Assembly (NCBI GenBank): GCA_039545335.1
Contig: BCIN01000002.1
Span: forward strand, 248,001 to 312,000
DNA from: Kondoa subrosea
Lineage: Eukaryota
Direction of reading: 5' to 3'
Length of the DNA: 64,000 nucleotides
The notes under the pieces were generated by a model. It saw only the letters and a list, made by a program, of their open reading frames with translations. It had not been told where the DNA came from and made no database searches. This document shows positions 493-58,487 of this stretch, in pieces; position 1 is the stretch's first letter; every line of letters starts with the position of its first letter. The translations under genes were made by a program, and so were the position numbers.

Positions 493-1642
493 ATGTCCCG
501 CGATTCACATCCTGAGCTAGTCCAAGAAGCGCGAGCGATAGCTGATCAATACTTACAAGAGCCTCTGCGCACGACATTTGAAGCAAGAATCGAGCGTCAA
601 AAGCTTTGGTCTTGCAGCATAGAGAATATGTCTTCAGAAGTAGTCAGAGTACTTGCGCTCAGATTCAATATCTCAAGGGCTCCCTGGCTCTTTCTCGCAG
701 ATGTTGAAGCTCAGGCCGGCCTCTTTATTTCGCGCTCTGAACATGTACCAGCAATAGGTTGGGCACTCAGCGTCAAGAGGGCCGCAAAAGAAGAGTACTA
801 TTTAGCTGGTGTACCATTGGAATTGAGTAGAGACCTGCGTTTCCTTGGACATCTTCGTCACTTCCCTCCGGCTTATGTGAAAAGGATGTTTGTGGTGCTG
901 TTGTTGCTCTTGGAAAGGTTTATGCAATGTTCTTGTTCAGATGAAGGCAGGCCGGAGAAATTGGAACGGGCTGGAGCCAAGTTTTTATCTGTGATTGTGG
1001 AAAGCGCCTACAAGTTGTATTCTTCGAATCCTGTTTCTTGTCAAGAAGCCTTCGACACGACACAGGACCAAGCATCTCCTCTATCCGCACTATTGCGACT
1101 TTGCGCGGTCATTGATAGGGATATGGCGAAGCCCTTATCATCCCGAGATGAATGGGAAGATTTGGCCTCGCTGGGGGCTGCGAATCTTGTCTTCCTTCGA
1201 TACCCACTCCAAACCTTCCGATCAAAGCCTGACTTCTTCCAGTCTTGTTTCAAGATAGAAGATCCGATTCGGCGGCCAGAGCTCTTCAAAACCTTCCCAA
1301 GGAGAAAAGCTCGACAGATTTGCATAGACTTCACAAAGCTGACGAGAATTTTATCGCTGCTTGTAACACCTGCGGGATTTGGGAGGAAGGTTGTGACGCT
1401 GCAAAGATGATCAAGCCATGCTCCGACTGTGCGGGAATGAGCTATTGTAGTGAGTGTTCTGGCATACTTTCTGCTCCCCTGGCTTATATTCTGTAAAGGC
1501 AGAGCATGACAGAAAGCTGGTTCGTGACTGCTTCCTATTATATACTGACACTGATGCCTTTGTAGATTGGCATCAGCATAAATATCAGTGCTCGAAAATC
1601 AGCAAGAATTTAGAACGTTCTGCATGGTCGCTTCTCGCATGA
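493..1642 (+). CDS. MYND-type zinc finger protein (multi-exon)
   Basis: Long first ORF from ATG 493, then spliced C-terminal CNTC...CSDC...YCS..(intron)..DWHQHKYQC, the MYND pattern. Confidence 0.7.
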
Positions 1643-2321
1643 TTTATTGTCACTCCAGCTTCTTCAATGGAATTCTTCTGGTATTGTGCGTTGTAGTTCT
1701 GCCAGGCGATCTTTCTCTGTTATTCTATTCGTCCTGTGTTTTCCACGACAGACTTTGTTGCTGCCAGACGTAATCCCACGTTCATTTGAATCTCCGAATG
1801 TCTGTCGAGACATACACTACACGTTGTGATGGCCGGCTCAGTAGGCGCTGGTGTCACGCTTTTCGTAAATGCGCAGGACGTCTCCTGCCTGACATTCTAG
1901 CTTGTTCTGCTCTGGCCAGTATGAGCTTGATGGTCTGTGCAGAATCTCCAGTCAGCGTTCTTCTACATTATCTCTGCGCCAGGGATAGCTCTATGCTCCG
2001 AGGGGGGCATTTTTTGCGCGTGCCAGCTTTCAGAATCAGTCAAGCGCATTTATTGGCCAAACCTGTCTTGGCTCGAAAAGGCCTTCACGCACGAAAATCG
2101 AAGGTTTTACGACGGCACGTCAAAACGTCAACTAGTGCAGTCCAACAATCCCTTTCGATATTTTCGCGGAACTTGAATTGGGTCCTAAGTGTTTCTTTGC
2201 ATGCTATGTGTGATAAACGTTTTGATACCTTTTCCATCCTCCTTCTTATCCATCATCCAAACCAAGTAATTCACTCCTCCTCGTCTCTGCTGTCTCCTCT
2301 AGTGCATCGTGCGAATTACAT

Positions 2322-2526
2322 GTTTCCGCAGGAAAAAAAAATTCCTGTGCGAATCTGGCTGTGATGCATCAGGCTCCTAGGAAGAGTGGTATGGCGTGCA
2401 AAAAGAAGCCTGGAAGCGGGACGAGAAAAGTAACCAAAAAATTTTCCGCCAAAAAATCCTGTTGCGAATCTGGCTGTGATGCTAGGAAGAGTGGTATGGC
2501 GTGCAAAAAGAAGCCTGAAGCGGGAC
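2322..2526. repeat. Imperfect tandem duplication (~100-120 bp period) covering the tRNA 3' end, terminator and downstream flank
   Basis: gcgaatctggctgtgatgc...ctaggaagagtggtatggcgtgcaaaaagaagcctg(g)aagcgggac occurs at ~2349-2422 and ~2464-2526, with small indels. Confidence 0.85.
2505..2509 (-). terminator. Pol III T-run terminator of the tRNA-Lys gene
   Basis: TTCTTTTT directly after the discriminator base on the minus strand. Confidence 0.65.
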
Positions 2527-2695
2527 TCGAACCCTGTAGAACATTTTTAGAATTTGGAAAATTTCGGGAAAGAAATGGCTAGACATACCGCAGCCTTTCG
2601 ATTAAAAGTCGAATGCTCTAGCCAATTGAGCTACCCTATATTTGTTTAGGCATGAGTAAACGAAGTCGGGTGGAGGGGTTGTTAATTTACCGGGC
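2512..2695 (-). tRNA. tRNA-Lys(UUU) split by two 55-nt GT-AG introns (exons 2695-2691, 2635-2589, 2533-2512)
   Basis: Joined exons read GCCCGGG TA GCTC AATTGGCTA GAGC A TTCGA CTTTTAA TCGAA AGGCT GCGGG TTCGAGT CCCGC TTCAGGC T. D, anticodon and T stems pair fully; acceptor stem has C4.A69 and two G.U pairs; A and B boxes intact. Confidence 0.8.
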
Positions 2696-2812
2696 AGGGG
2701 TCAACTGGTCTGATGTGGAGCGGAATTCCAAAAACACATATGAATATTCAACCAATTGGTTGTAGGGCATTTTGTACACACGACAGGCCGTAGTCAGTGC
2801 TGTATGCCTTAG

Positions 2813-3561
2813 TGCTCAGTAAGACCTGGCAAAGACAATCGAGAATCTGTTTCATCTTTCATCGAGATTTTGCAAAGACAACTAAGAATTTCGTTCATCG
2901 TTCAATTTCGGTCTATAGAGGACTGAGTAGAGCTCACCTCAATTATATTTGCATCAGAACTGCAATCGATAGCCGTTACTAGCCTTTTTTGGATGTAGTG
3001 ACAGCCTCAAGCTCTGAAGACTTTGTCAGATTGATTCGCGGCCAATCTTCTTTTGACACGATTGCATTGATAGAGTAAAGCATGATATAATGGAATCATA
3101 TTGAAGAGACTGTGCAGATGTGCTTGAGCAACGTTAGAATGAGGGGATTGAATGTTCTGAGACAGGTTTAAGCCAGTGTGACAATGACTTGCAGAAAGGA
3201 GCATTGCCATCATAAATGTCTGTTTAAGGAGTAGCTCGATAGCGTGGTGCAATAGCAACTGCCGAGTTTAGGCTGACCGAGCAGTTATGGAGGCATAGTT
3301 TTTGCACATGATCCGAACAACAGTCGAGAAACGAGACGGGATCATCGCGGCATAGCGAAGTCATTTGAAAGAGAAGGTAGTGCGTTGTAGTCGACTGTAA
3401 GGCGAATTACTGCTGATCTTTGGTTTGATGGCCCGCCGAACAAGTGTTGACATCGAAGTCACAGCAATGCAATCGATTCCGCATGTCGTACCACTTGAAT
3501 GAGGTAGCGAGGGTGCTCGTGGATAGCACTCTTGAAGAGTCAAGAATCGCAGAACGTACAT
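2813..3561 (-). CDS. Possible small multi-exon gene of unknown function
   Basis: Several GT..AG intron-like segments and protein-like pieces (e.g. LCRDDPVSFLDCCSDHVQKLCLHNCS); no recognisable family. Confidence 0.2.
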
Positions 3562-3611
3562 CGCATCGCTAAATCTCGAGACGAGAATTTAGGCAGCTGC
3601 TGATTGATTGG

Positions 3612-6600
3612 ATGTCTGCAGATATTTCACTATTGCCTGCAACCGTACGCGAGAACAATGCAGAGACGAAGGCGCAATCTGCAAGTCGTCGAAGCAGCTT
3701 TGCAGGCTCAAGGTCACAGAAGCAGACGAAAGGCAAGAGGCAGAGCATCAGAGCGTGCAAAGCGCGAATAGAGAAGACAAGACAACAAATGCTAGCGAAT
3801 TGCCGCACACCATGGTTCCAGGACAAGGTCTCCCTTCAATTTGCTTTGGGAATGCTTCTCTTCCTACATCGGCCAGTCCGACTCACTAAGAAGCGTTCAT
3901 GACTCGACAGCTCACCCACGGTCGAAAGCGCAAGCATGCCTTGTCTAGACAGAACTCTGCAGCTGTGAGCTCTGCTGCCAACTTGGCTGATGTCGAGGAA
4001 GGCAACAACAAGGTGTGTTCCTGCTCTCAACGCTTCATAAACAACTCACATGATGCTCAACAGAGACCCAAGCTCTTGACTCGAGGCAATCACAGCAGCG
4101 AGCCCGATTTGCGTGAATCATCTCGCAAGCGACACCGTACTTCCTCTTCATCAGGCAATGCAGGAGAGACTGCGCAAGAGGAGCTTGATCGTACTGTTCG
4201 TCGGCGCGAGCTAGAGGACAAGACGAGACTTGCGAATGTATTACCAGCTAAGACCGACAACGACAAATCTACACCCTTGCCAGCTTCTTCACCCGCTAGA
4301 GCTTTGCGTTCACCAATTCGGCAAACTCGAGTTCATGCTTCAGCTAAATCACCTCGTTTCAGTCATCGCCGACGTTTGACGATTTACAGTGATCAGACTT
4401 TTCGTCCGGGAACCAATGTTCCTGGTACACCTTTTGTCGACTCTTTTGCTCAAGCAGCATTTCAATCTCCTTTACCTTTATCCCAGTCTGAATCCTTGTT
4501 GGAGGATTTAGATTCGAAATTGAATCGTTTCCCACCTATTTTTCGTCATTCTTCAATAGATCAGTCTATGAACAGCAGTATTGTTTTCGAACAGCAAGAA
4601 GAGGATGTAGAGATGCAATCAGTAGCAGATTCAAGAAGAATTCTGCCGTTGATTTTCGATTTTGATCCGATTCCTAAAGTGGTTGCTCATTCTCGTTTCA
4701 CCCAAGAAGAAGAAGAGGAACAAAGAGTTGTGTTACCAGAATCTTCACCTTCTAATGGAGGAACAGGAGCGGATTCAGTTGGTGAAAGGCAATCACCTTC
4801 ACCTGATCGACCTGTCTCTGCACCAGTCTTTATACCAAGACTCACTACTTTGGTTACAGGAGGAAGAGGAGTGAGACCTAGATTGTACCGAAAGGGAAAG
4901 TATGACTCTTCTTCAGATATCGAATTGAAAGAGGAAGGGAATGGCACGACGAGCGAGGATGAATTAGCTAATCAATTGGGTTCGGTGGTTTTGCAAGACG
5001 ATGAAGGACGTTTTAGAGAAAAGATGAAACGAAGAGTTGGTCAAGGTGGTAGAAAGAGCGAAGGATTGAAAGGTTTGAGCGAAGCAGTTCTCTCCTCAAA
5101 TTTACAGAAATACTGATTTCTTTGGGTTTGGAAAGGCAAGAAGACGCTGCGAATGAAGATCTTGCCAGAACCATACAAGAATGGTGATCAGACTTCAAGC
5201 GATCCTTTGGCTCGATTTGCTGATCAGACCATTCGCTGATGTGTCGACCAAGCGCAATCAAAGGGAAAGGAATCTGGGTTGCGGTGTTTATAATGGGATT
5301 CGCGAGTTTCATGTGCTGATACAAGTGCAATTCCACGCTTTTTGTATGATCTTACGCATAATTTGAGACCGCAGCATTTTCGAGTGTTGAACTTCTTGAA
5401 AGCGCGTGAATGGCTTCTTCTTCTGTTCCCATTCACAATCTTGTAATTATGCCTCCGAAACCTGCAGCAACACCTAAAGCGGTGCCTCGTGATCCAGCAA
5501 CGGATCAGCTTGTGTTTGTTCTCCTCAAAGTGCCTTTGCATGAAATTGCTTCTGATGATTTTCTTGCAGTCATCGCGCTTTGAGTCAGGCAGGCAAGAAT
5601 CTCGCTGCCGCTCTACAACTACAAGGTAAGCTGTCCCTAGCCATCTACAATATAGGTCTGACCCTCTGTCCAATGTCAAACAGAACAAGTCATTCGGCAC
5701 AGAGAGCTGTTACCAAAGTACATGCTTCTACTTTGCTTGCAAAACCTGTAGCTGATCAGTGTGGTATCAATTTCCAGCGCCTTCGCCTATGCCGAGTATT
5801 CGAACCGCACGGAACCATTAGATCCTCAATCAGATGAATACTTGGCTTACTCCAAAGACATCTTTGTCAAGTCTCGAGGGAACGATATGAGAATCATCTG
5901 GCAGGAGATTATGCAATTAGCTAGTCGCGAAGAACGAATAGCCTTACGAGATACGAATAAACTCTGTCATGAGTGAGTTCTTCCTCTGTACTGGTTTTGA
6001 GCGAAAGCTGTAGTCTTATGTGGCTTTTACATCAGCATCTATGAGGAAATGGAATTCCGCGAACTGACTTTGAAGAAAGTCGTCTTCAATGCTAGATCAT
6101 CAAGTGAAATCTTGACTTTGGATTGGAGAGCGAGAAGAATCAATCCACCAGCCAAACCGAAACTCTTCTCTACCAGTCAGATTCCACCTACATTCAAAGC
6201 TGTTCCTATTCTCAGGCCGACGAAATGGTATGAGAGGGATAAAATCGTTATTAATCAAGTTTATTTCGAAACCATTGTGTTTGAAGGTGAGCAGGACATT
6301 CTCAGATTTGGGTTCGTCTTGGTTCTGAGAAAGCTTTTCACAGAGTTCCGTCGACCTTCCTACATCGACTCATTAGACTGGACATCAAAGGCATCCTTCC
6401 ATGTTGGCGTCGAAGTCCCCTCTGGTCATGTTCTGCTTGAATCCTCTTTAGTGTCTGAGCCGTTGTATGTCGCGCCTGGTCATGAACATGCGTCTGTTCT
6501 GGTCGAAAGATGGACAGCGTATGAAAACCGGGAATGGATCGAAGAAGGTGAAGTTGGAATAGATGAAGATGAGGAAGAGGAGGAAGAGGAGGAAGAGGAA

Positions 6601-11460: not shown

Positions 11461-13529
11461 ATGCGAATTGGTCTGCAATTACGTCGTTCTATTGCCCGAA
11501 GAGCCATCGACAGCATGTCACTGCCTTTCCCAGTTTCTGAGCGATTGGCTCCAGAGATGAATAAGCTTGATGGTGAGTTTTCTCTGCATCCGTTGTGTGC
11601 TTGTCTCATGTGACTTTTAGTTTGGAGCGTCTTCAGGTCCGTCAGAACTTGATAGCCTTACAGAATGAAATCTGACTCGTCATAGTCCTTTGTCTGGATA
11701 CGTACCGAAGGACTCTATCAATCTTGGACAAGGCTTCATGAATTGGAAACCCTTCCCGGAAGCAGCCCATGCAGCGTAAGTTTCGTCGACCTTGCAATTT
11801 TGCTGTCTTTCAACCTCTTGTCTACAGAGAAGCGGCGTAAGCTTATTTGTGATGCAACAATATCTGCTGATATCTGCTTAGCCTAGATGACGTAGCGAGT
11901 AATCACTATTCTCTGCCAAAGGGTCGAATAGCACTTCGGCGGGCTTTGAGCAAGCACTATTCGCCTTCTTTCGGTTTGAAGCGAGATCTAGATCCAGAGA
12001 GAGAAATAGCAATCTTTTCTGGTGCAAATGTAGCAATCCTCTCTGTTCTGACTGCCTTTATCAATGCTGGAGATGAAGTAGTAATCATTGAACGCAAGTC
12101 TTCGCTCTTCTCATTTATGTGCCTCGGCTCATTATCTAGTACTGTGCAGCTTTCTTCGATCAATATCTTGTTAGTCTGCTATTGTGCTTGTCATGGAAGC
12201 TTCGCTAATGTTCACTCTCACAGGCCAACATCACCTTCCAAGGTGGTGTACCTCGTTTTGTGCCAATGCGACCTCCACCCAAATCAAAAGATGGCAAACC
12301 TTCTTCTGCTTCTGAATGGACTTTAGACTTGAATGAATTACGCTCTGCTATCAATTCGAAGACGAAATGCATTATCCTCAATACGCCTTCAAATCCACTA
12401 GTAAGTCAGACAACTAGCTGTCGCACGTTTAATACTGAATAAGTATCGTACCGCAGGGAAAAGTCTTTACTGAAAAAGAACTGATAGATATTGGCACAAT
12501 AGCAGAAGAAAACAACCTCATTATTATCTCAGATGAAGTCTATGACTGTTTAGCATTCCCTCCAGCTCAACATATTCGAACCGCTTCCCTCAAGTCATTC
12601 TGGGATCGAACAATAACAGTTGGTTCTGCTGGCAAATCGTTTTCTGCAACGGGATGGCGAGTATGTTCAAGAGCCTCTTCACTAGCAGAAAAGTTCGCTC
12701 ATATCTATGTTTCTTGCCTGTCATAGGTGGGTTGGGCACTTGGACCTGAACATCTCGTAAAACCAGCAACTGCTGCATCGACAAGATTAGTCTTTTGTGC
12801 AAGTCTTTTTGTCAAGTCATGTGAAGATTCAACTCATTCTCTTAATCCTTTAGTCTGTATCACCATTACAGGAGGCTGTAGCGGGAGCATTTGAAAAACA
12901 AGGCAATTTCTTTGCTGATCAGAATAAGGCCTATATCGAAAGAAGGGAGGTTTTGACTCAAGCACTGGATCGCTTAAGGATTGGCTAGTACGTTTCTTCC
13001 TTCGTGGACCAAAAGAGCGCCGTACTAATCATGACAATAGTACTCAACCGGATGGAGCTTGCGAGTCATTTTCATCTTTCGGTAACCAAATAACCTAATC
13101 TAGTACATCGCCAGACTTCATCTTCGTGGACATTGAAAAGCTCAGGATTCCAGACGATTTTGAAACCCTTGATATCATCAAAGATCGAACAAGGGATTGG
13201 AGAGCAGCTTGGTTCATTGCAAAGACTTGCGGAGTAGTCGTGGTATGTCGGAAGATTTGAGTCGATGTTTTCACTCATATGTCGAGCAGATTCCTCCTAC
13301 TGACTTCTACTCAAAAGAGCATGGTAGGACTTATCCTCTTGCAATCCTCAGACAGCCTCATAGTGTGCTCCGCTAGCTGATATTGGCGCAAACTACATAC
13401 GTCTGGCTTTTTGCAAGGATATAGAAACTCTGCAGAAAGCAGGGGAGAGGTGAGCAACCCTCACATGTTTCGATGGCGTCCTTAAACAAGTATTCCAGAT
13501 TACAAAAGCTTGCACCATACCTAGAGTGA
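11461..13529 (+). CDS. PLP-dependent class I aminotransferase, kynurenine aminotransferase (BNA3/KAT-like)
   Basis: INLGQGF, EPFFDQY, LNTPSNP, ISDEVY, GSAGKSFSATGWRVG, RLAFCK motifs over ~15 exons. Confidence 0.92.
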
Positions 13530-13548
13530 AATGCAGATACAATGATAA

Positions 13549-16500
13549 CTAGATTTCCTGTTGCTGCAACACGACGTCTATAACATCTCTTTGCTTGATT
13601 CGCAAGACCAGATCTGCTGGAATTCGTTTTGCCAAATAGCCGGCAAGTAGAACTCGTCCTTCAGCTTCTGCCAAGTCTTCTGCCTTCACATCTAATTGTG
13701 CTCTAGTTGCCTTAGGCAGGTGAGTGTACTGTACGGCAAAGCTGTCAGATAAGTTCACGATTACATGGCGACAACTCACATAGTGCAATAGTATTGCGTC
13801 ATCATGGTGTACACTTCCATTAAGCAGCCCCTTCTGCTTGCCAAGCTTTGCGATGACTTTGATGAAGCTTTTGCCCTGCAATTCCCTTAGCGGCTGCAAT
13901 TCCCACTTTCTTTGTACAATCATTTCGCCTGCAGGCAAGAGCGAGGGCGATCCGTGACTATCGATCTGTGTGCAGCCTAGTCCTGCCAGCTCATCCAAGG
14001 CTTGATCAACTTTCCGGGACGCAAAGACGTTCTTGCTTAAATCTGCTGGACATCCGTAGTAACTAGGATTAGAATGAAGTCGTCTAGCCCAGAATGTCGT
14101 AGACAGTGTTTTGAGTAGATCATGACGGCTCGATGGTTTTTCCGTCAAAGATTGCAGTAAGAAGAGTTGGAAATGGTTGTCTTGGCTGAAGGGAGATTCG
14201 AGAAGAAGACCGTCTCTTAGGAAACGGGAATATATATCAGCTTGAGAGGGTTGACATAGAATCAGACATTGGTTGTTGATTCCTGAAGAAGCCGCTGCAG
14301 CGCAACTCTGCATTTGGAGAAGATCGTTGATATCGTAGTCACGCAGCGTCCTTGAGCCCTCTTTGTCTACGATGGCATCTTGTGTTCCTGCGACGATCAC
14401 GAGAGGTGCAACAAGATCGTCTAACCAAGAACAGCCTTTTGTTGCGATCAGAAGCCTAGCGGCGCCAGCTTTCCAAGTTTGCAGCATTAATTTCTTTTCC
14501 ATTGGTGCCATTCCTTCGTAAAAGAGAGCTATTCCATGCAGTAGGGCCTCTTTCGAGTCATGATCCCTGATCTGCTGACTGCACAGCTCCAATACTTCCC
14601 CATTTCCGACAAAAGCCAAGGTTTCCAGATCAGAGCCGGAATGTTTGATCAGTGAGAGGGCGGCAATCAAACATTGATTGCGAGAGGAGACGAAGCAGAT
14701 TGCTGATGTGCCACTCGCTTGGACAGCGTGATGAATAGGTTTAATCATGTTGCGAAGTAAAGTAGTGGGATTCGTAGTAGACGAGAACGTTTGAAAGCTT
14801 GTCTCCAGCGAAGTTGGTCGATCTGCACTTGCGAAGGAATATACGTGTTCGCTTCGGCAATGCAGCCAAGCAGCTTGATCCAGTGGGTTCAACATTGGCG
14901 CGGAAAGACATATTCGCCGTAGCGAAGTAGGTAGACGTGAGAGAACGCTCTCGTATGCACTATTCAGGCTGTGAACCTCGTCGGCTATGACCAAAGACAC
15001 GCCGTCACCGAGACTGTCAAGTAGCGCGAGCGGTTGATCGGCTAGGATGTAAGGATTGGCAATAAAGCAGCGTGGACCGCTGTCTGAATCTTTTTTGAAA
15101 GCCTGAATGTCGTTTGCAGATATTAACACCTTGCAACGTATTCCAATGGAATTGAAATATTGTTTGATTGTACGATTGATGATAAGTGCGGTTCTCGGCA
15201 AAGATAGAATGAGTATGGATGCATTGGAAGATTTAGTGATACAATTCCTAGTAAAGCTTTAGATTTGGCTTCGCGTGCCTGTCTGAAGACTGACCAGATG
15301 CTCAACAATATGATTTGCATGCGATTGAAATGATCGGGTATGCACAAAAGGCAATTAGCCGTGGTATGACAGATTGAATGATATGTTTGCGTTTCTATTG
15401 GATCCAGACTGCCAGGATTGCCGATGAGACACTTGCGTAAACCCGGAACCTCAGAAACGTTAAATAAGGGGATGTCTTCTTGTAATGGTGTCTTGTATGT
15501 TGATTGCACTGGCATGTGCACCCCTTCGCAGGGCACTATCACGATTTCGTCGCTGTCCATCCATCGATCGGAATTGAGATGAACATTGAAGTGCGAAGGG
15601 AGCTTTGGTACTGTCGTCAAGAAGTCGTACGTAAGCTGACTCATCGAAGCTTGTAGCTGTACATTTGTTATTTGTAGTATGTTGATGTCGTCGGCATCCG
15701 ATAACCACAGCCAGAACATTTCCATATTTCCATGAATTTTATTTGTCCAAGTGAAGTCTTTCGTAGCCACTACTTGAATCCGTAACAGATCGGAAGCCAA
15801 TGGTTCCAACACGAATTCGAAAGTAAAACGAGGTAGATGTGAGGCAGCTTCTTGAGCTATTGTTCCAAGCCGTTCGTTCAGATGTATGAGCTCTCCAAGC
15901 TCTTTAGGTGGTAGGGCAGCAAGATCGCGCGCATCCCAGTCATCAGCGTATTGGCTAATGTTGTAAACTATATCCGCCGGAACCTCAAATTGGCCGATCG
16001 GATTGTCGAAGGGCCACATGCGACCTGGGTTGTACTCAGTATATGCTTCTCACCGATAGATTGAACTCACGCTCAATGGCTTTGCAAAGCGAAAGGATGA
16101 CACGCGATGATTCAGACCATTTTCGGCTCATTGCAATCTCAAACATTGCTCGCGCAATACGTGCCGCGTTTTGAGCAACATATGCAGAGTCACTAACTAG
16201 GGCAAAGTCTTCGATGAAGCGCCGGGAGATATAGCTCTGTAGCAAGACATTGACTTTGCCCTGCGTTGTTTGGACAGCCCCCTGTGCAAGGTCAGCAATA
16301 CACGTAGAATGGTATGACAACGTACTCTGATGTCGCAAGGCGCACTTTCCGATAGGGTCTTCAATTCCGGCACTTCTGAATCGCGCACAGCAATCTGCTC
16401 GAACTCGTGGCTTTGGCTGAGCACCCAAAGTGTATCGGCTTCGGTCATTCGTGGCTTGAAGATGGGATTGAAGGTTTCGATACTCTTTGCATTTAGATAA

Positions 16501-19500
16501 AATTTCGATGCCGTGATGCCTAAATCTGTTGACGTGAGCGAGCCACTGTCTGGGTCGAAGATAACCATCTCATAAGAGGCCAATTGCTTAGCTGCTATAG
16601 TCATGAGCTGGAACCTCTTGCTGCCCAACGAGGGATCGTTTTCGACATCGACTTGAGTTAGACCGTAAACCCTGAACGATAAATGAGCATAGTCGGTATT
16701 GGGCTCGGAAATCTCACATGGGATTCTTGCGCATTCTGACAAACAAGAAGGTATAACCAATCCACCGAACACCTTCATCGATTGATGAAACTGTTCCAAG
16801 AGCTATTTCTGCATTCAAAGCATTGAGAATGCCTTGTACGAATCTATAGGATGATGAGAAATTGTCGTGGACTAGGCCAATGCGACTTACTTCGATTCGA
16901 TAGGATGTTGCTCAGTTATAGCTGAAACGTAGTGGTCTACTTTATCGGCTGTAGTGCAGATGTAGCCGACACCGTGCGTCTCATATTGAGGTCGACCAGC
17001 ACGACCAAAAATCTATCAAAGAGCTATGCGTAAGCTTTCTTGATCCAAGACAGAGAGCTGAGACTGACTTGTAATACATCGAGTATTGATAAATCGACAA
17101 AGCTACCTTTCGAGGCATCGTAGATCTGAGTGCCTTTGATGACAACTGCATAGGCTGGGAGATTGACTCCCCAAGCTAAAGTAGCTGTGCAGACAAGGAC
17201 CTGCTCTCAAAGTCAGGAATCGACCTCTACTCTCAAGGAAAGACCTCGCTTTGGTAACATTCTGCTCAAACATCCTTTCGCTAAGTGTACGGTCAGACCT
17301 CAGCATGCCTGCATGATGTATACTGCCAAAATCTATATCAGTAACGAAACTGAAATAGCCTGAACCACGGACCCAAAGCCATCCAGAAACAGCTCGCGCA
17401 TTTCGCGATTTCTGGATCCGCCAACATCCCGCTTGAACAGGTTGTATTTATCATTTAGTGTGGCATCCACTAGATCATGTAGACCTTCAGCTTTCACACA
17501 ATCTCGTAACATCATAGCAGTCTTGACTGTTTCTTTCCGAGCATGAACAAAGACCATAACTTGATGACCATCCCGCAGCAGATCAGCGACCTGTCGAGTC
17601 ATCCTTTACATTGAGACGATTCTGATGTCTCGAGCAGTGCTACAACCGACCTTGTCGAATGTAGCGATATCAAGATTTTCCCTTGAGGCGGAACTATTGA
17701 CCTTTCCTTTGACCCCAATGAAATGTTGCTCAAGTGGTACAGGTCTGAAGCTTTGATCGAAGTAGAAGAGACCCTGATATCGATTGACTCTGCAAAGGGA
17801 ATCACTGCCACTCGGTAGAGGGTTGAGTGTTCAGAACATACCCTAAGAAGTCTGCCACATCAATATAATTGGGAAGAGTAGCTGACAGACCAACAATACG
17901 TATAAGTAATTGACTAGATTCGACCTATGTTGGCTTGTGAGTCAAAGACCTTGATTTTGATCATAGATTGCTTACCATGCGCAGTGTTCTTGCGACAATC
18001 GTTTCTATCACAGCTCCACGATCATCATGTAGTAAGTGGACTTCATCGATGATCAGAAGTCGGACTTTCTGCTTTGACTATTAGTAACAATCTCCGAACT
18101 GCTGATCAACTGACCGATGTCAATTCCTCTTCCGAGCTGCTCTTATTCGTCACGACAGCCCATTTCTCAGGTGTGGTCACAATAACCTGAGTTTCACTGA
18201 TTTCTTTTCTTGTCAGTTGCATATCACCTTGTTTCAATGAATTTCATCAGGCTTTCGTCTTCTCTTTCGCTCGAATCCCTTACCAGTCAATTCTTTCACC
18301 TGTACACCGATCCATCCAAGACGTTTACTCATCTTTTTGGTAATTTCAGCAGCCAGAGCTTTCATAGGTGCAACATAAACGATTTTGAAATCATACGAAG
18401 ATAAACGAGTTCGACCAGCGGAAGTTGGACCTGGTAAAATGAGCGAAGAGTTTTGTGATATAGCTCGAAGAACAGCTAAAACGGCAACATCGGTTTTACC
18501 CTGTTATTAGGATGAGTAAAAGGCCCTCAGGAGTCGGGTAGAAAGGGAAATAAGGACGAACAGCACCTGTTGGCGCGCAGACCAACATATTCTCATTTGA
18601 TTCGTATGCGACAGGGTAGACAACTGATTGTAATCGATTAAGAGTAGTATACCCCTGGTAAGACTGTGAGCATAATCTGATGCGGCAAGCTTGTAGGCAC
18701 CAACAGGAAAGGAGCCTCGAGCTAGCGGATCTAGTTCTGATATGTTTCGTAATCGTTCTTCCGATCGCATCGGCATGATTGAAGGAGTTGGTATAATGAC
18801 TTCTTCGTATTTCTGTCAGTAAATGGACTAAGTCAGGAAGCTGACAAGACATCCTTCAGTACTGACCTCATGAGCTATACGTTTTGTCCCTGTTGGCAAA
18901 CTGTATTTCTGGCCGCTGAAGGAAAGCGTGCTTCCGCTTTGTGTTGCAGCATAAATATGTGGATATTTTGGTTCTTCAGGAACGCCTCTCTATGATAGAG
19001 ACACTTCATCAGCTTCCCTCTGCAGGAAAATTGTGTCTACTCACATCCTTACCGCTCGCTAATGGTCGAGAGCTAGCAGCTTGCAATTCTGCTTCGCGAA
19101 TGCGTTGCATCTCGTTGAAAGTCAAGACAGGTTCAGCAGCACTCTTTTGTTGGGCATGATTATGCCTCTTCGCTTCATTTCTAGCTCTCTTAGCTTCTGC
19201 TTTGCTTTGCAAGGTTTCGAAAATGATCTGCGCTTGCGGAACATATCCACCTCTTGCAGCTGCTGAAACGTTCGTAGATACTACAGGTAGTGGTGGTAGT
19301 AGTGTTTGTTCGCGAGAAGAAGGTTCCCAAAGAGCAGCCTTTGGGTTCAGAGGTGAAATCGATTTGACATTCTCCCGCTTCAGAGTATTGCGATGAGACA
19401 AAGCTTGAGGAATAGTGTCTATACGATCATAGCCGACCAATTCAACTAGTTGTACTGCTATCACATCGTCCGAAGTTTCAGAAGTGAGTAGTTGTAGAGC

Positions 19501-19856
19501 TTGTTTGCGATTGTCTTCGTTGGGAATAGTCCTATTAGTCAATAGATCAGTACGATTACTATGCCTGTACATGAAACACACAATTCGAGCCAAGCAGAAG
19601 CTGTCAAGCTATCTGTTAAATGTTCCAAGGTTGTTTTTGAAGTGCTAGCAAAGGGAGGCCAGACATCTTGATCGATCGCTGGTTCGGAAGCGAGACCATT
19701 CGTATGCGGCCTGCTATTGTCCAGGTTAGCACAGCTCTGGGACTTCCGCTTGAGAAATGACCTGTTGCTCGACTTCAATTTTTGCTCTATGTCATTCCAA
19801 ATATCGCCTGAGGCAACTGATGCGGGGTATAGCAGCTCTTCTAGGCTGAAAGACAT
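13549..19856 (-). CDS. SLH1: Ski2-like Sec63-domain helicase, Slh1/Rqt2/ASCC3 type
   Basis: [61 protein letters not shown], and Sec63 region [13 protein letters not shown]; degenerate second cassette. Confidence 0.88.
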
Positions 19857-20106
19857 ACTCCAGATGTTCTTCCAGGCGCTTCAATGGGTTATACTCCTCG
19901 TTGCTAGTTTCGAACAGCTTGTTCTCAAGCCGTGACCATCAATGGATCTGTGAACACCTTGCTCTGCACGATTCAGAACAAGCTCATCACTCTCCGATTG
20001 AGATCTCTGCTTCTATCTTTGCTGTCCCTTTGTCATTTCGAGTTTGTCCATTCTAGGTAACTCATGGGAGTTGATATGGCTTGCTCCTTACGTTCCCTCA
20101 ACCACT

Positions 20107-53446: not shown

Positions 53447-54645
53447 TTAGGTGCTACATCTCAACAGACTATCTACAAACGAATTCTTCCTTGTTTCTCG
53501 TCAATCGAATTCCCTTCAAATAGCAGCCTGACCTCTCACATCCGAAGTTTGCCATTTCAATTCCCTCTCAGCAGCAATGTTGAGCAGATTCAACGACGCT
53601 CTGAACTTCTCCGATTCGCTTGGNNNNNNNNNNNNNNNNNNNNNNNNNNNNNNNNNNNNNNNNNNNNNNNNNNNNNNNNNNNNNNNNNNNNNNNNNNNNN
53701 NNNNNNNNNNNNNNNNNNNNNNNNNNNNNNNNNNNNNNNNNNNNNNNNNNNNNNNNNNNNNNNNNNNNNNNNNNNNNNNNNNNNNNNNNNNNNNNNNNNN
53801 NNNNNNNNNNNNNNNNNNNNNNNNNNNNNNNNNNNNNNNNNNNNNNNNNNNNNNNNNNNNNNNNNNNNNNNNNNNNNNNNNNNNNNNNNNNNNNNNNNNN
53901 NNNNNNNNNNNNNNNNNNNNNNNNNNNNNNNNNNNNNNNNNNNNNNNNNNNNNNNNNNNNNNNNNNNNNNNNNNNNNNNNNNNNNNNNNNNNNNNNNNNN
54001 NNNNNNNNNNNNNNNNNNNNNNNNNNNNNNNNNNNNNNNNNNNNNNNNNNNNNNNNNNNNNNNNNNNNNNNNNNNNNNNNNNNNNNNNNNNNNNNNNNNN
54101 NNNNNNNNNNNNNNNNNNNNNNNNNNNNNNNNNNNNNNNNNNNNNNNNNNNNNNNNNNNNNNNNNNNNNNNNNNNNNNNNNNNNNNNNNNNNNNNNNNNN
54201 NNNNNNNNNNNNNNNNNNNNNNNNNNNNNNNNNNNNNNNNNNNNNNNNNNNNNNNNNNNNNNNNNNNNNNNNNNNNNNNNNNNNNNNNNNNNNNNNNNNN
54301 NNNNNNNNNNNNNNNNNNNNNNNNNNNNNNNNNNNNNNNNNNNNNNNNNNNNNNNNNNNNNNNNNNNNNNNNNNNNNNNNNNNNNNNNNNNNNNNNNNNN
54401 NNNNNNNNNNNNNNNNNNNNNNNNNNNNNNNNNNNNNNNNNNNNNNNNNNNNNNNNNNNNNNNNNNNNNNNNNNNNNNNNNNNNNNNNNNNNNNNNNNNN
54501 NNNGCTTTCGCAAAAACATCGAAATCTTTATTTTCAGACTTTTGGCTGATAAATTGCCGCCGGTTCGGGAATCTTTGCACTGCCTGCCTTTGTGTGGGTA
54601 TTGGTGGGAGAGATGAATAATGATGTAGTGAGGGAAGAGGAGTAT
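53447..54645 (-). repeat. Left arm of an inverted duplication (copy of ~56965-58487), interior unsequenced
   Basis: 53516-53623 is the reverse complement of 58313-58420 and 54504-54630 of ~56985-57110, with few substitutions. Confidence 0.9.
53624..54503. other. Assembly gap (880 N)
   Basis: Run of N. Confidence 1.
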
Positions 54646-56964: not shown

Positions 56965-58487
56965 CTGGGGCTACTTCTTTCCTTACTACATCATTATTCA
57001 TCTATCCCACCAATCCCCACACAAAGGCAGGCAGTGCAAAGATTCCCGAACCGGCGGCAATTTATCAGCCAAAAGTCTGAAAATAAAGATTTCGATGTTT
57101 TTGCGAAAGCGACATTCAATCGTCAAAGTGAAGCAGGGTATACAAGGAATGCATGCGCAGGCAATGACAAACGACCGAGAAGCTGTTTTCATCCCTTTGT
57201 GCACAGTCAAGACTTGCGATTCGTTTTTAGGTGCCAAGAGCTAGGCTAAGAATAAAGCTTGGTAAAAAGGCTTCTTGACTTTGCACCTATTTGCTCTCTT
57301 GTCCTTGGTCAACGTGTTGAATCTTCATTCGAGCTTTCATCGTCGCAAAACACCGCAAGACAGCAGCACTCTTTCGCAAGACTTCAAATATCTTTTTATA
57401 TCTCTCGCAAGCTCGTCGGGTTCATTTTAGCATATAGCATCATCATGACCGAGATCCCTCTACTTCCACAAGCTCTGCTCGACTTGGCTGTTACTGCCGT
57501 TCGAGGCAAACCTTCAACTTTGGGCGCGGGACACGATTGCACTCCTTCTATGCAATCTATTCTTGACGCTTTCAAGACTCAAGGCAACAATGATCGAGCT
57601 ATGTTGTTGGCTTTGTTGCAAGCAAAGAAAGCAGAGGATGAGGTGAGATTCCTTCCAATTTCAAGGTTGTTGCGCACGAAACTGAGGTGATCTCTTTCGC
57701 GTTGCGATAGCGCTTGGCAGCATTGAGCTACGCTTTGGCCGTGCAAGCGTTGACGGTAGTAGCAAGTCAGCAGGTTGCAACTCCTCAGCATCTCTTTGTT
57801 CCAGGTCAGTAATAGTGTCCTGCCTCTAGATGCCAAGACATTTTTGCTCACCTTTGTCTTGTGTCCTGATAGAACAATCTCGTTCAAGCTCTGTTGCTTC
57901 ACTCTCTTCTCGTCAATCTGTTCGCTCTTCTGCTTCAGATGAAGAATCNGTCGCAACAAGCATCTCAAGAAGATCGTCTCAAACCAGTCAAACTTCCCGC
58001 AAACGCAAATCACCGGCTCCACTTGAAGGTCCATTATCTCATTCGGACGTCATGAATGCCTTGCAAGCCAAGTTGAAAGCTCGTTCCAATTCCCCTCCTC
58101 CTTCCTCTTCTTCTTCGCTTCCCGCCGAACCACTTCCGAAACGTCGCAAATCAGCTACTCCTCCTTCTTCCAGCCGTACTACTCCTTTAGCAATGCAACT
58201 CCCTCCTCTTCCTTCTCTATCACCTCGCTCTGTCGCCGCTCCTCGTTATCAGCTGCCCCTTTCTTCGACTGATTCAGCTCGTCAGTCGCCTCGCCCCGCG
58301 GCGTCAGCCACACCAAGCGAATCGGAGAAGTTCAGAGCGTCGTTGAATCTGCTCAACATTGCTGCTGAGAGGGAATTGAAATGGCAAACTTCGGATGTGA
58401 GAGGTCAAGCTGCTGTTTGAAGGGATTTCGATCGAGGAGAAGGCAGAAAATGTTTGTAGATAGCTGCTTTAAATGTAGTACTTCTAA
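56965..58487 (+). repeat. Right arm of the inverted duplication
   Basis: Matches the left arm at both sequenced ends. Confidence 0.9.
57445..58420 (+). CDS. Small Ser/Pro-rich protein with an N-terminal helical block (ILDAFKTQGNNDRAMLLALLQAKKAEDER); second copy inferred in the left arm
   Basis: ATG 57445, two ~60-70 nt introns, C-terminus ...LNLLNIAAERELKWQTSDVRGQAAV (AAI in the inverted copy). Confidence 0.7.

Follow-up and report, generated by a model that had tools for sequence, protein, structure and literature searches.

A tRNA-Lys(UUU) sequence split by two inserts lies on the minus strand of the window (the whole 64,000-nt stretch of DNA that was analysed). Read directly, the whole split unit covers 2695-2512. 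The original prediction had given 2523-2633, a span that runs only from the A box to the B box and is part of the larger unit, 2512-2695. The two inserts are referred to here as intron 1 and intron 2. The unit and its neighbours are as follows.

2691..2695, minus strand: exon 1, GCCCG, tRNA positions 1-5, the 5' strand of the acceptor stem; GT follows directly, and ARAGORN requires this exon.
2636..2690, minus strand: intron 1, 55 nt, GTAAAT..TATAG with the acceptor TAG; read directly and backed by the motif score.
2589..2635, minus strand: exon 2, 47 nt, tRNA positions 6-51, with the D arm, the anticodon arm, the variable loop and nucleotides 1-3 of the T stem; from the partial Rfam RF00005 match and ARAGORN.
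2622..2633, minus strand: A box, TAGCTCAATTGG; read directly, the box positions 8-19 being those given in PMC3978253.
2604..2606, minus strand: anticodon TTT (Lys, reads AAA); from ARAGORN after removal of both inserts.
2534..2588, minus strand: intron 2, 55 nt, GTATGT..TACAG with the acceptor CAG; read directly and backed by the motif score.
2512..2533, minus strand: exon 3, 22 nt, the remainder of the T arm, the acceptor 3' strand TTCAGGC and the discriminator T; read directly and from ARAGORN.
2523..2533, minus strand: B box, GGTTCGAGTCC; read directly.
2505..2509, minus strand: T5 run, Pol III terminator-like, 2 nt (TC) after the discriminator.
2336..2427, minus strand: partial tandem copy, from the T loop onwards, of the tRNA 3' end together with about 90 nt of trailer, its partner being 2451-2531; from a repeat search and blastn.
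2785..2865, no strand assigned: multi-copy repeat 90-170 nt upstream of exon 1; pieces of several other contigs match 2788-2865.

Intron 1 interrupts the acceptor stem at 5|6, and intron 2 the T stem at 51|52. The close layout holds as originally described. Intron 1 ends 2 nt (GG, 2635-2634) before the A box at 2633-2622, intron 2 adjoins the B box at 2533-2523 with no gap, and CG|GG stands at both exon junctions. T runs reach at most 3 in intron 1 and 4 in intron 2, and the T5 lies downstream of the gene.

Removal of both inserts rebuilds the tRNA precisely, and both removals are needed. When the two inserts were cut out by their coordinates, ARAGORN called a tRNA-Lys(ttt) of 74 nt; it made no call in the other three variants, with no insert or either single insert removed. 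On the raw window ARAGORN reported 0 tRNA, and it gave no match when anticodon-loop introns of 0-100 nt were allowed. Rfam in gathering mode returned 0 matches over the whole window. At a looser threshold RF00005 matched 2561-2640; its 28.4 bits fall short of the gathering score of 29, and the match covered the D and anticodon arms only. Over the whole window, the E-value mode of Rfam gave a partial tRNA match and no other split RNA gene. In the rebuilt molecule all four arms pair except at 4:69, and the A box, the B box and the T5 are perfect; the acceptor stem, as drawn by ARAGORN, has four Watson-Crick pairs, two G.U pairs and one C4.A69 mismatch. The inserts, at 5|6 and 51|52, are not canonical eukaryotic tRNA introns, which need to sit at 37/38 in the anticodon loop.

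The stretch of about 2.2 kb around the tRNA (1410-3600) seems to be free of protein genes. On the plus strand, 1774-2361 holds 196 open codons when no start is required; they are rich in Cys, Arg, Leu and Ser, with neither a coding signal nor a Pfam match. The two tandem copies downstream agree by blastn at 97.8% over 46 nt and 100% over 20 nt, are separated by a 10-nt indel, and differ further in one extra C in the acceptor strand of the second copy. The contig pieces that match the upstream repeat differ from it by 3-9 letters, and depth there rises up to about 11-fold; within the window, blastn found no second copy of 2785-2865. This repeat could be what is left of a transposon or an LTR, or else an upstream element that is shared. 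It also holds a 40-nt tandem pair, 2822-2861 and 2865-2904, whose members are 75% alike.

Elsewhere in the window, the predicted proteins carry fungus-like domains (a MYND finger, a sedolisin pro-domain, Sir2 and an HMG box), and their named matches are weak, with E 2e-7 for a Microbotryomycetes sp. and E 1e-4 for two Agaricomycetes. The source organism is probably a basidiomycete. A 57,633-nt contig of a relative bears homologs (P0001 and P0158) of two window genes that lie 12 kb apart, at 73% and 53% identity; a syntenic relative thus exists, with both homologs on one contig. The window also contains N runs, namely an 880-base assembly gap at 53624-54503 and a single N at 57949. The low G+C at 52-56 kb and the "ORFs" that are open in all six frames there are due to these N runs.

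The inserts were compared with introns of a protein gene in the same window. The profile was taken from a helicase gene on the minus strand at 13.5-19.9 kb (13500-19950), which encodes Sec63 and DEAD domains of the Brr2/Slh1-like kind and has at least 14 introns of 44-61 nt. The nearest relatives of its last large exon are 31-37% identical among 1.8 billion representatives, barring one fragment that is 73% identical. A first intron finder, based on ORF junctions alone, was too noisy, and a homology-based finder was used instead. In it, each of 1,714 GT..AG candidates of 38-120 nt was removed in turn and retained only where a homolog then showed an ungapped alignment over the new junction. This gave 39 non-overlapping junction candidates, from which the 14 introns with a blastp score of at least 100 bits across the junction were used; a fifteenth candidate at this level was dropped, as it adjoins another so closely that an exon of 1 nt would result. 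The selection was blind to splice motifs.

These host introns are 44-61 nt long, with a median of 50. GTNNGT opens 10 of the 14, G stands at +5 in 13 of 14, and YAG ends 13 of 14. A CTNAN motif was found 6-35 nt from the 3' end in 13 of 14. The two tRNA inserts, each of 55 nt, fall inside the length range of 44-61 nt, and both run from GT to AG with a pyrimidine before the AG. The donor of intron 2, GTATGT, fits the host GTNNGT; that of intron 1, GTAAAT, has A at +5, which is seen in 1 of the 14 host introns. Intron 1 carries the branch motifs CTCAT, 17 nt from its 3' end, and CTAAA, 10 nt from it; intron 2 carries CTAAA at 13 nt. The branch motifs of both inserts thus lie at the host distance. 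CTAAA lacks the pyrimidine at the last position that 9 of the 13 motif-bearing host introns have in the copy nearest the 3' end. In addition, the TTTACTCAT stretch of intron 1 recurs in the helicase-gene intron 18561-18501.

A simple position-weight score built from the 14 host introns gave 10.6 for intron 1 and 8.8 for intron 2, within the leave-one-out host range of -1.9 to 11.8. Intron 1 lies in the top 0.7%, and intron 2 in the top 2.0%, of the 8,621 GT..AG segments that the window contains at lengths of 44-61 nt, the real introns among them. The combination of GT..YAG, GTRNNT and a CTNAN branch motif occurs in 10 of the 127,890 window 55-mers. The inserts are probably of the spliceosomal type, judging by their host-like length, branch motif and YAG, the host-like 5' site of intron 2, their rarity by chance and their lack of a bulge-helix-bulge; in this respect the original prediction holds up. 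Two points speak against such a reading, namely that exon 1 is just 5 nt long and that intron 1 has A at +5.

Introns at positions other than 37/38, several to one tRNA gene, are known in Cyanidioschyzon merolae (PMC3978253). Such non-canonical introns of the archaeal or red-algal type, cut by the tRNA splicing endonuclease, were considered together with transposon-like "introner" copies. A bulge-helix-bulge was sought as two 3-nt bulges that hold the cut sites with a 4-bp helix between them. A 4-bp central helix with a flanking helix was found in none of the 16 registers; the best register of each intron forms 3 of the 4 central and 2 of the 3 outer pairs. Of the 3 inverted-repeat pairs reported for 1500-4000, none is placed at the ends of the inserts. 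Contigs of two DNA runs of one sample, probably the source assembly (about 19 Mb in total), were compared over 2300-2900 at 80% likeness, and none other than the contig of the locus itself lies on 2531-2782 at that likeness or above. The inserts are thus not members of a recent repeat family. A tRNA-derived SINE or an introner family would be expected to show many related copies and was rejected on this account; absence of further cover is weak evidence in such a comparison, and a filter may conceal records. An origin of these introns in the endonuclease system or in introner copying is consequently an extremely remote prospect. No paralogous tRNA-Lys and no second copy of either intron were seen in those contigs in pieces of at least 45 nt, a minimum under which a tRNA-Lys paralog with an anticodon-loop intron would fall into shorter pieces and so escape.

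The idea that the two introns are duplicates of each other was also rejected, and the originally suggested origin by duplication is not supported. They share 19 of 55 positions, a level equalled by 49% of shuffles, and no other contig of the two runs covers 2531-2782 at 80% likeness or above. Introns that serve a protein frame were rejected as well: all reading frames of the spliced unit meet a stop within the tRNA, and 1400-3700 contains no coding signal, so the introns serve no protein. A metagenome locus, the one locus found with a 23-letter exon 2 pattern, was dismissed as a relative. It is a cluster of uninterrupted tRNA-Lys and tRNA-Arg, and its acceptor stem and D arm differ from those of the split tRNA-Lys.

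The locus could also be an ordinary dead tRNA pseudogene that suffered two unrelated insertions, or a 5' truncation and one insertion, and looks intron-like by chance. The 5-nt exon 1 would suit such a history, as would the acceptor-stem mismatch and the local duplication; moreover, GCCTAAA within intron 1 (2650-2644) also pairs with the acceptor 3' strand at 6 of 7 positions. To gauge how easily intron 1 could arise by chance, an intron-1-like solution was defined as a GT..AG segment of 40-100 nt that, once taken out, leaves at least 6 of the 7 acceptor pairs restored. Random upstream sequence gives such a solution in 0.8% of cases with shuffles and 2.0% with random window pieces, and in 0.03% of cases when splice motifs are also required. 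The real upstream 217 nt contain exactly one such GT..AG solution, which is intron 1. This rarity, together with that of the joint intron features among the window 55-mers, the place of both inserts in the top 2% of GT..AG segments, their common length of 55 nt and their common CG|GG context, makes a chance resemblance very unlikely.

The junction context is not random, as originally suspected. The spliced tRNA has 73 internal sites, 7 of them G|G and 2 of them CG|GG, and the introns occupy both of the CG|GG sites. This points to sequence-directed insertion or to selection for good exon context. The split tRNA itself is confirmed as a real and statistically solid observation.

The further suggestion that the introns were filtered for promoter integrity fared differently. 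Since 52 of the 73 sites spare both boxes, two random sites would do so with a probability of 0.51, and the sparing of the boxes is at chance level. The same applies to the T runs: 96% of window 55-mers have no T5, which gives 0.93 for two, and none of the 14 ordinary host introns has a T run longer than 4 either.

How such a gene would be transcribed is a separate question. The elements of a tRNA gene with a type 2 Pol III promoter are present (A box at 2633-2622, B box at 2533-2523, T5 at 2509-2505), and the spacing of 88 nt from A box to B box is within the tolerance of TFIIIC. Intron 1, however, puts 55 nt between tRNA position 5 and the A box. The A box is thus too far from the mature 5' end, and a start measured from it would not lie upstream of position 1. 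At the usual distance from the A box, Pol III would begin near 2645-2660, which lies within intron 1. Exon 1 and the donor of intron 1 would then not be transcribed, and the classical tRNA route could not give the whole tRNA. A full tRNA would probably come only from a start directed from upstream, by Pol II or by a TATA-directed Pol III. The measurement from the A box refers to the ruler function that the tauA part of TFIIIC has for the start site (PMC11724288). The evidence for this ruler comes from budding-yeast work, and upstream elements weigh more in other lineages (PMC3978253). In a red alga, the permuted tRNA genes have been suggested to use TATA-like promoters that lie upstream (PMC3978253). 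At the present locus, the region 40-67 nt upstream of exon 1 (2735-2762, minus strand) contains a CCAATTGG palindrome and a TATA-like stretch rich in AT. The palindrome occupies 2749-2762, and CAATTGG is common to it and the A box.

These considerations bear directly on the model put forward at the outset, in which Pol III transcribes the gene from its internal A and B boxes and the spliceosome removes both introns from the primary transcript. The perfect boxes, the T5 after the gene and the tolerable box spacing agree with it, and U6 offers a precedent for a spliced Pol III transcript. Against it, the start measured from the A box would lie in intron 1 and leave exon 1 out (PMC11724288), and the supposed signals of filtering are what chance would give (0.51 and 0.93). 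Of this model, the spliceosomal-type introns and the CG|GG context stand, promoter filtering and an origin by duplication are not supported, and transcription from the internal promoter alone is very improbable.

A working gene that depends on the spliceosome would avoid the difficulty with the start. Here, transcription would begin upstream, by Pol II or by Pol III through a TATA-like element, and the transcript would be spliced twice. The spliced RNA would fold as a tRNA, be cut by RNase P and RNase Z, gain CCA and decode AAA. Good host-typical signals in both introns, the intact cloverleaf, boxes and T5, the placement of both introns at G|G sites, which are favourable for splicing, and the TATA-like stretch with its palindrome all agree with this picture. 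The otherwise intact exons also favour a gene that works, and two gains in a single target of 74 nt make more sense for a gene that remained in use. Precedents exist in the spliced U6 (PMC5855946) and in the tRNA-Sec of Trypanosoma brucei, which is made by Pol II (PMC2943599). On the other side stand the C4.A69 mismatch and two G.U pairs in the acceptor stem, and no precedent for a tRNA was found in the literature searched. The U discriminator counts against it as well. A U at this position would be unusual for a tRNA-Lys. That the locus is a live tRNA-Lys(UUU) gene, possibly the only AAA decoder of the genome, whose RNA is spliced twice before release by RNase P and RNase Z, is possible on these grounds and somewhat doubtful; the same holds for upstream-started, spliceosome-dependent expression in general.

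A redundant or decaying copy is the likelier reading of the locus, ahead of a working gene. Decay or redundancy is suggested by the C4.A69 mismatch and the partial tandem duplication of the 3' end of the gene; the problem of the start site, the discriminator T and the general redundancy of tRNA genes are also counted on this side. The preferred reading, to which a probability of about 0.5 is given, is that of a nuclear tRNA-Lys(UUU) gene with two inserted U2-type (GT-AG) introns that is now a redundant copy. The odds that the locus is not a main source of tRNA-Lys are about even. The introns would have entered at the RNA level, by reverse splicing into the abundant tRNA-Lys RNA at G|G sites, and the invaded RNA would have been copied back into the genome by reverse transcription and recombination. 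The redundant copy would have been caught after this invasion; it may now be silent, or may yield tRNA only from transcripts that begin upstream of 2695. A transcript started there would have to undergo two splicings, folding, and trimming by RNase P and RNase Z. Reverse splicing is a putative origin of the introns, of which the locus bears no direct trace.

Introns of the mRNA type in U6 snRNA genes were reportedly described by Tani and Ohshima in 1989 and 1991. The U6 genes of Schizosaccharomyces pombe and other fungi hold up to four canonical spliceosomal introns per gene, and splicing of a Pol III transcript has been described for the U6 of fission yeast and other fungi (PMC5855946). Like the tRNA-Lys locus, these are small RNA genes of the Pol III class with short GT-AG introns and canonical 5', branch and 3' sites. 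The U6 introns are not conserved in sequence, and reverse splicing is their proposed origin (PMC5855946), as it is here. [quoted passage not shown] For most intron-bearing U6 genes, expression and splicing await experimental validation (PMC5855946).

Spliceosomal introns are found in other non-coding RNA genes of fungi too. Rhodotorula hasegawae is a basidiomycete yeast and so belongs to the phylum to which the proteins of the window weakly point. Its U1, U2 and U5 snRNA genes contain spliceosomal introns (PMC5855946), as do fungal U3 snoRNA genes and ascomycete rDNA (PMC5855946, PMC5832005). These cases share with the tRNA-Lys locus that they are non-coding RNA genes of fungi, and they differ in the class of the host RNA; the passages of PMC5855946 and PMC5832005 on such introns do not mention tRNA. 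The tRNA genes of Archaea and C. merolae resemble the locus in carrying multiple introns outside 37/38 that standard finders miss (PMC3978253). Those introns have a bulge-helix-bulge and are cut by the tRNA endonuclease, in contrast to the GT..AG, the branch motif and the host intron length seen here.

Some tRNA-shaped RNAs arise without the classical internal-promoter Pol III route, as the tRNA-Lys locus would have to do. One is mascRNA, a tRNA-like unit released from MALAT1; another is the Pol II-made tRNA-Sec of T. brucei. Unlike the tRNA-Lys locus, neither carries spliceosomal introns within the tRNA itself. In the literature searched, a body that leaves most subscription journals outside, no report described a tRNA gene with spliceosomal introns. 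The locus is best classed under a known and rare phenomenon, spliceosomal introns in non-coding RNA genes, with tRNA as a new class of host.

Non-coding RNA genes seldom carry such introns, and the known cases have served as evidence that introns can be gained through reverse splicing. The earlier cases are mostly RNAs within the spliceosome; tRNA is abundant but stands outside it. Host-typical introns at the sole two CG|GG sites of a tRNA would thus be a clean natural case of sequence-directed insertion. Split genes of this kind are invisible to ARAGORN and fall just under the Rfam threshold, and in intron-rich fungi they may be overlooked by censuses of tRNA genes. Should the gene work, it would link the world of Pol III and the tRNA endonuclease with that of the spliceosome, which have been thought separate. 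It would then be the first tRNA that depends on the spliceosome, and spliceosomal introns would be able to settle in tRNA genes.
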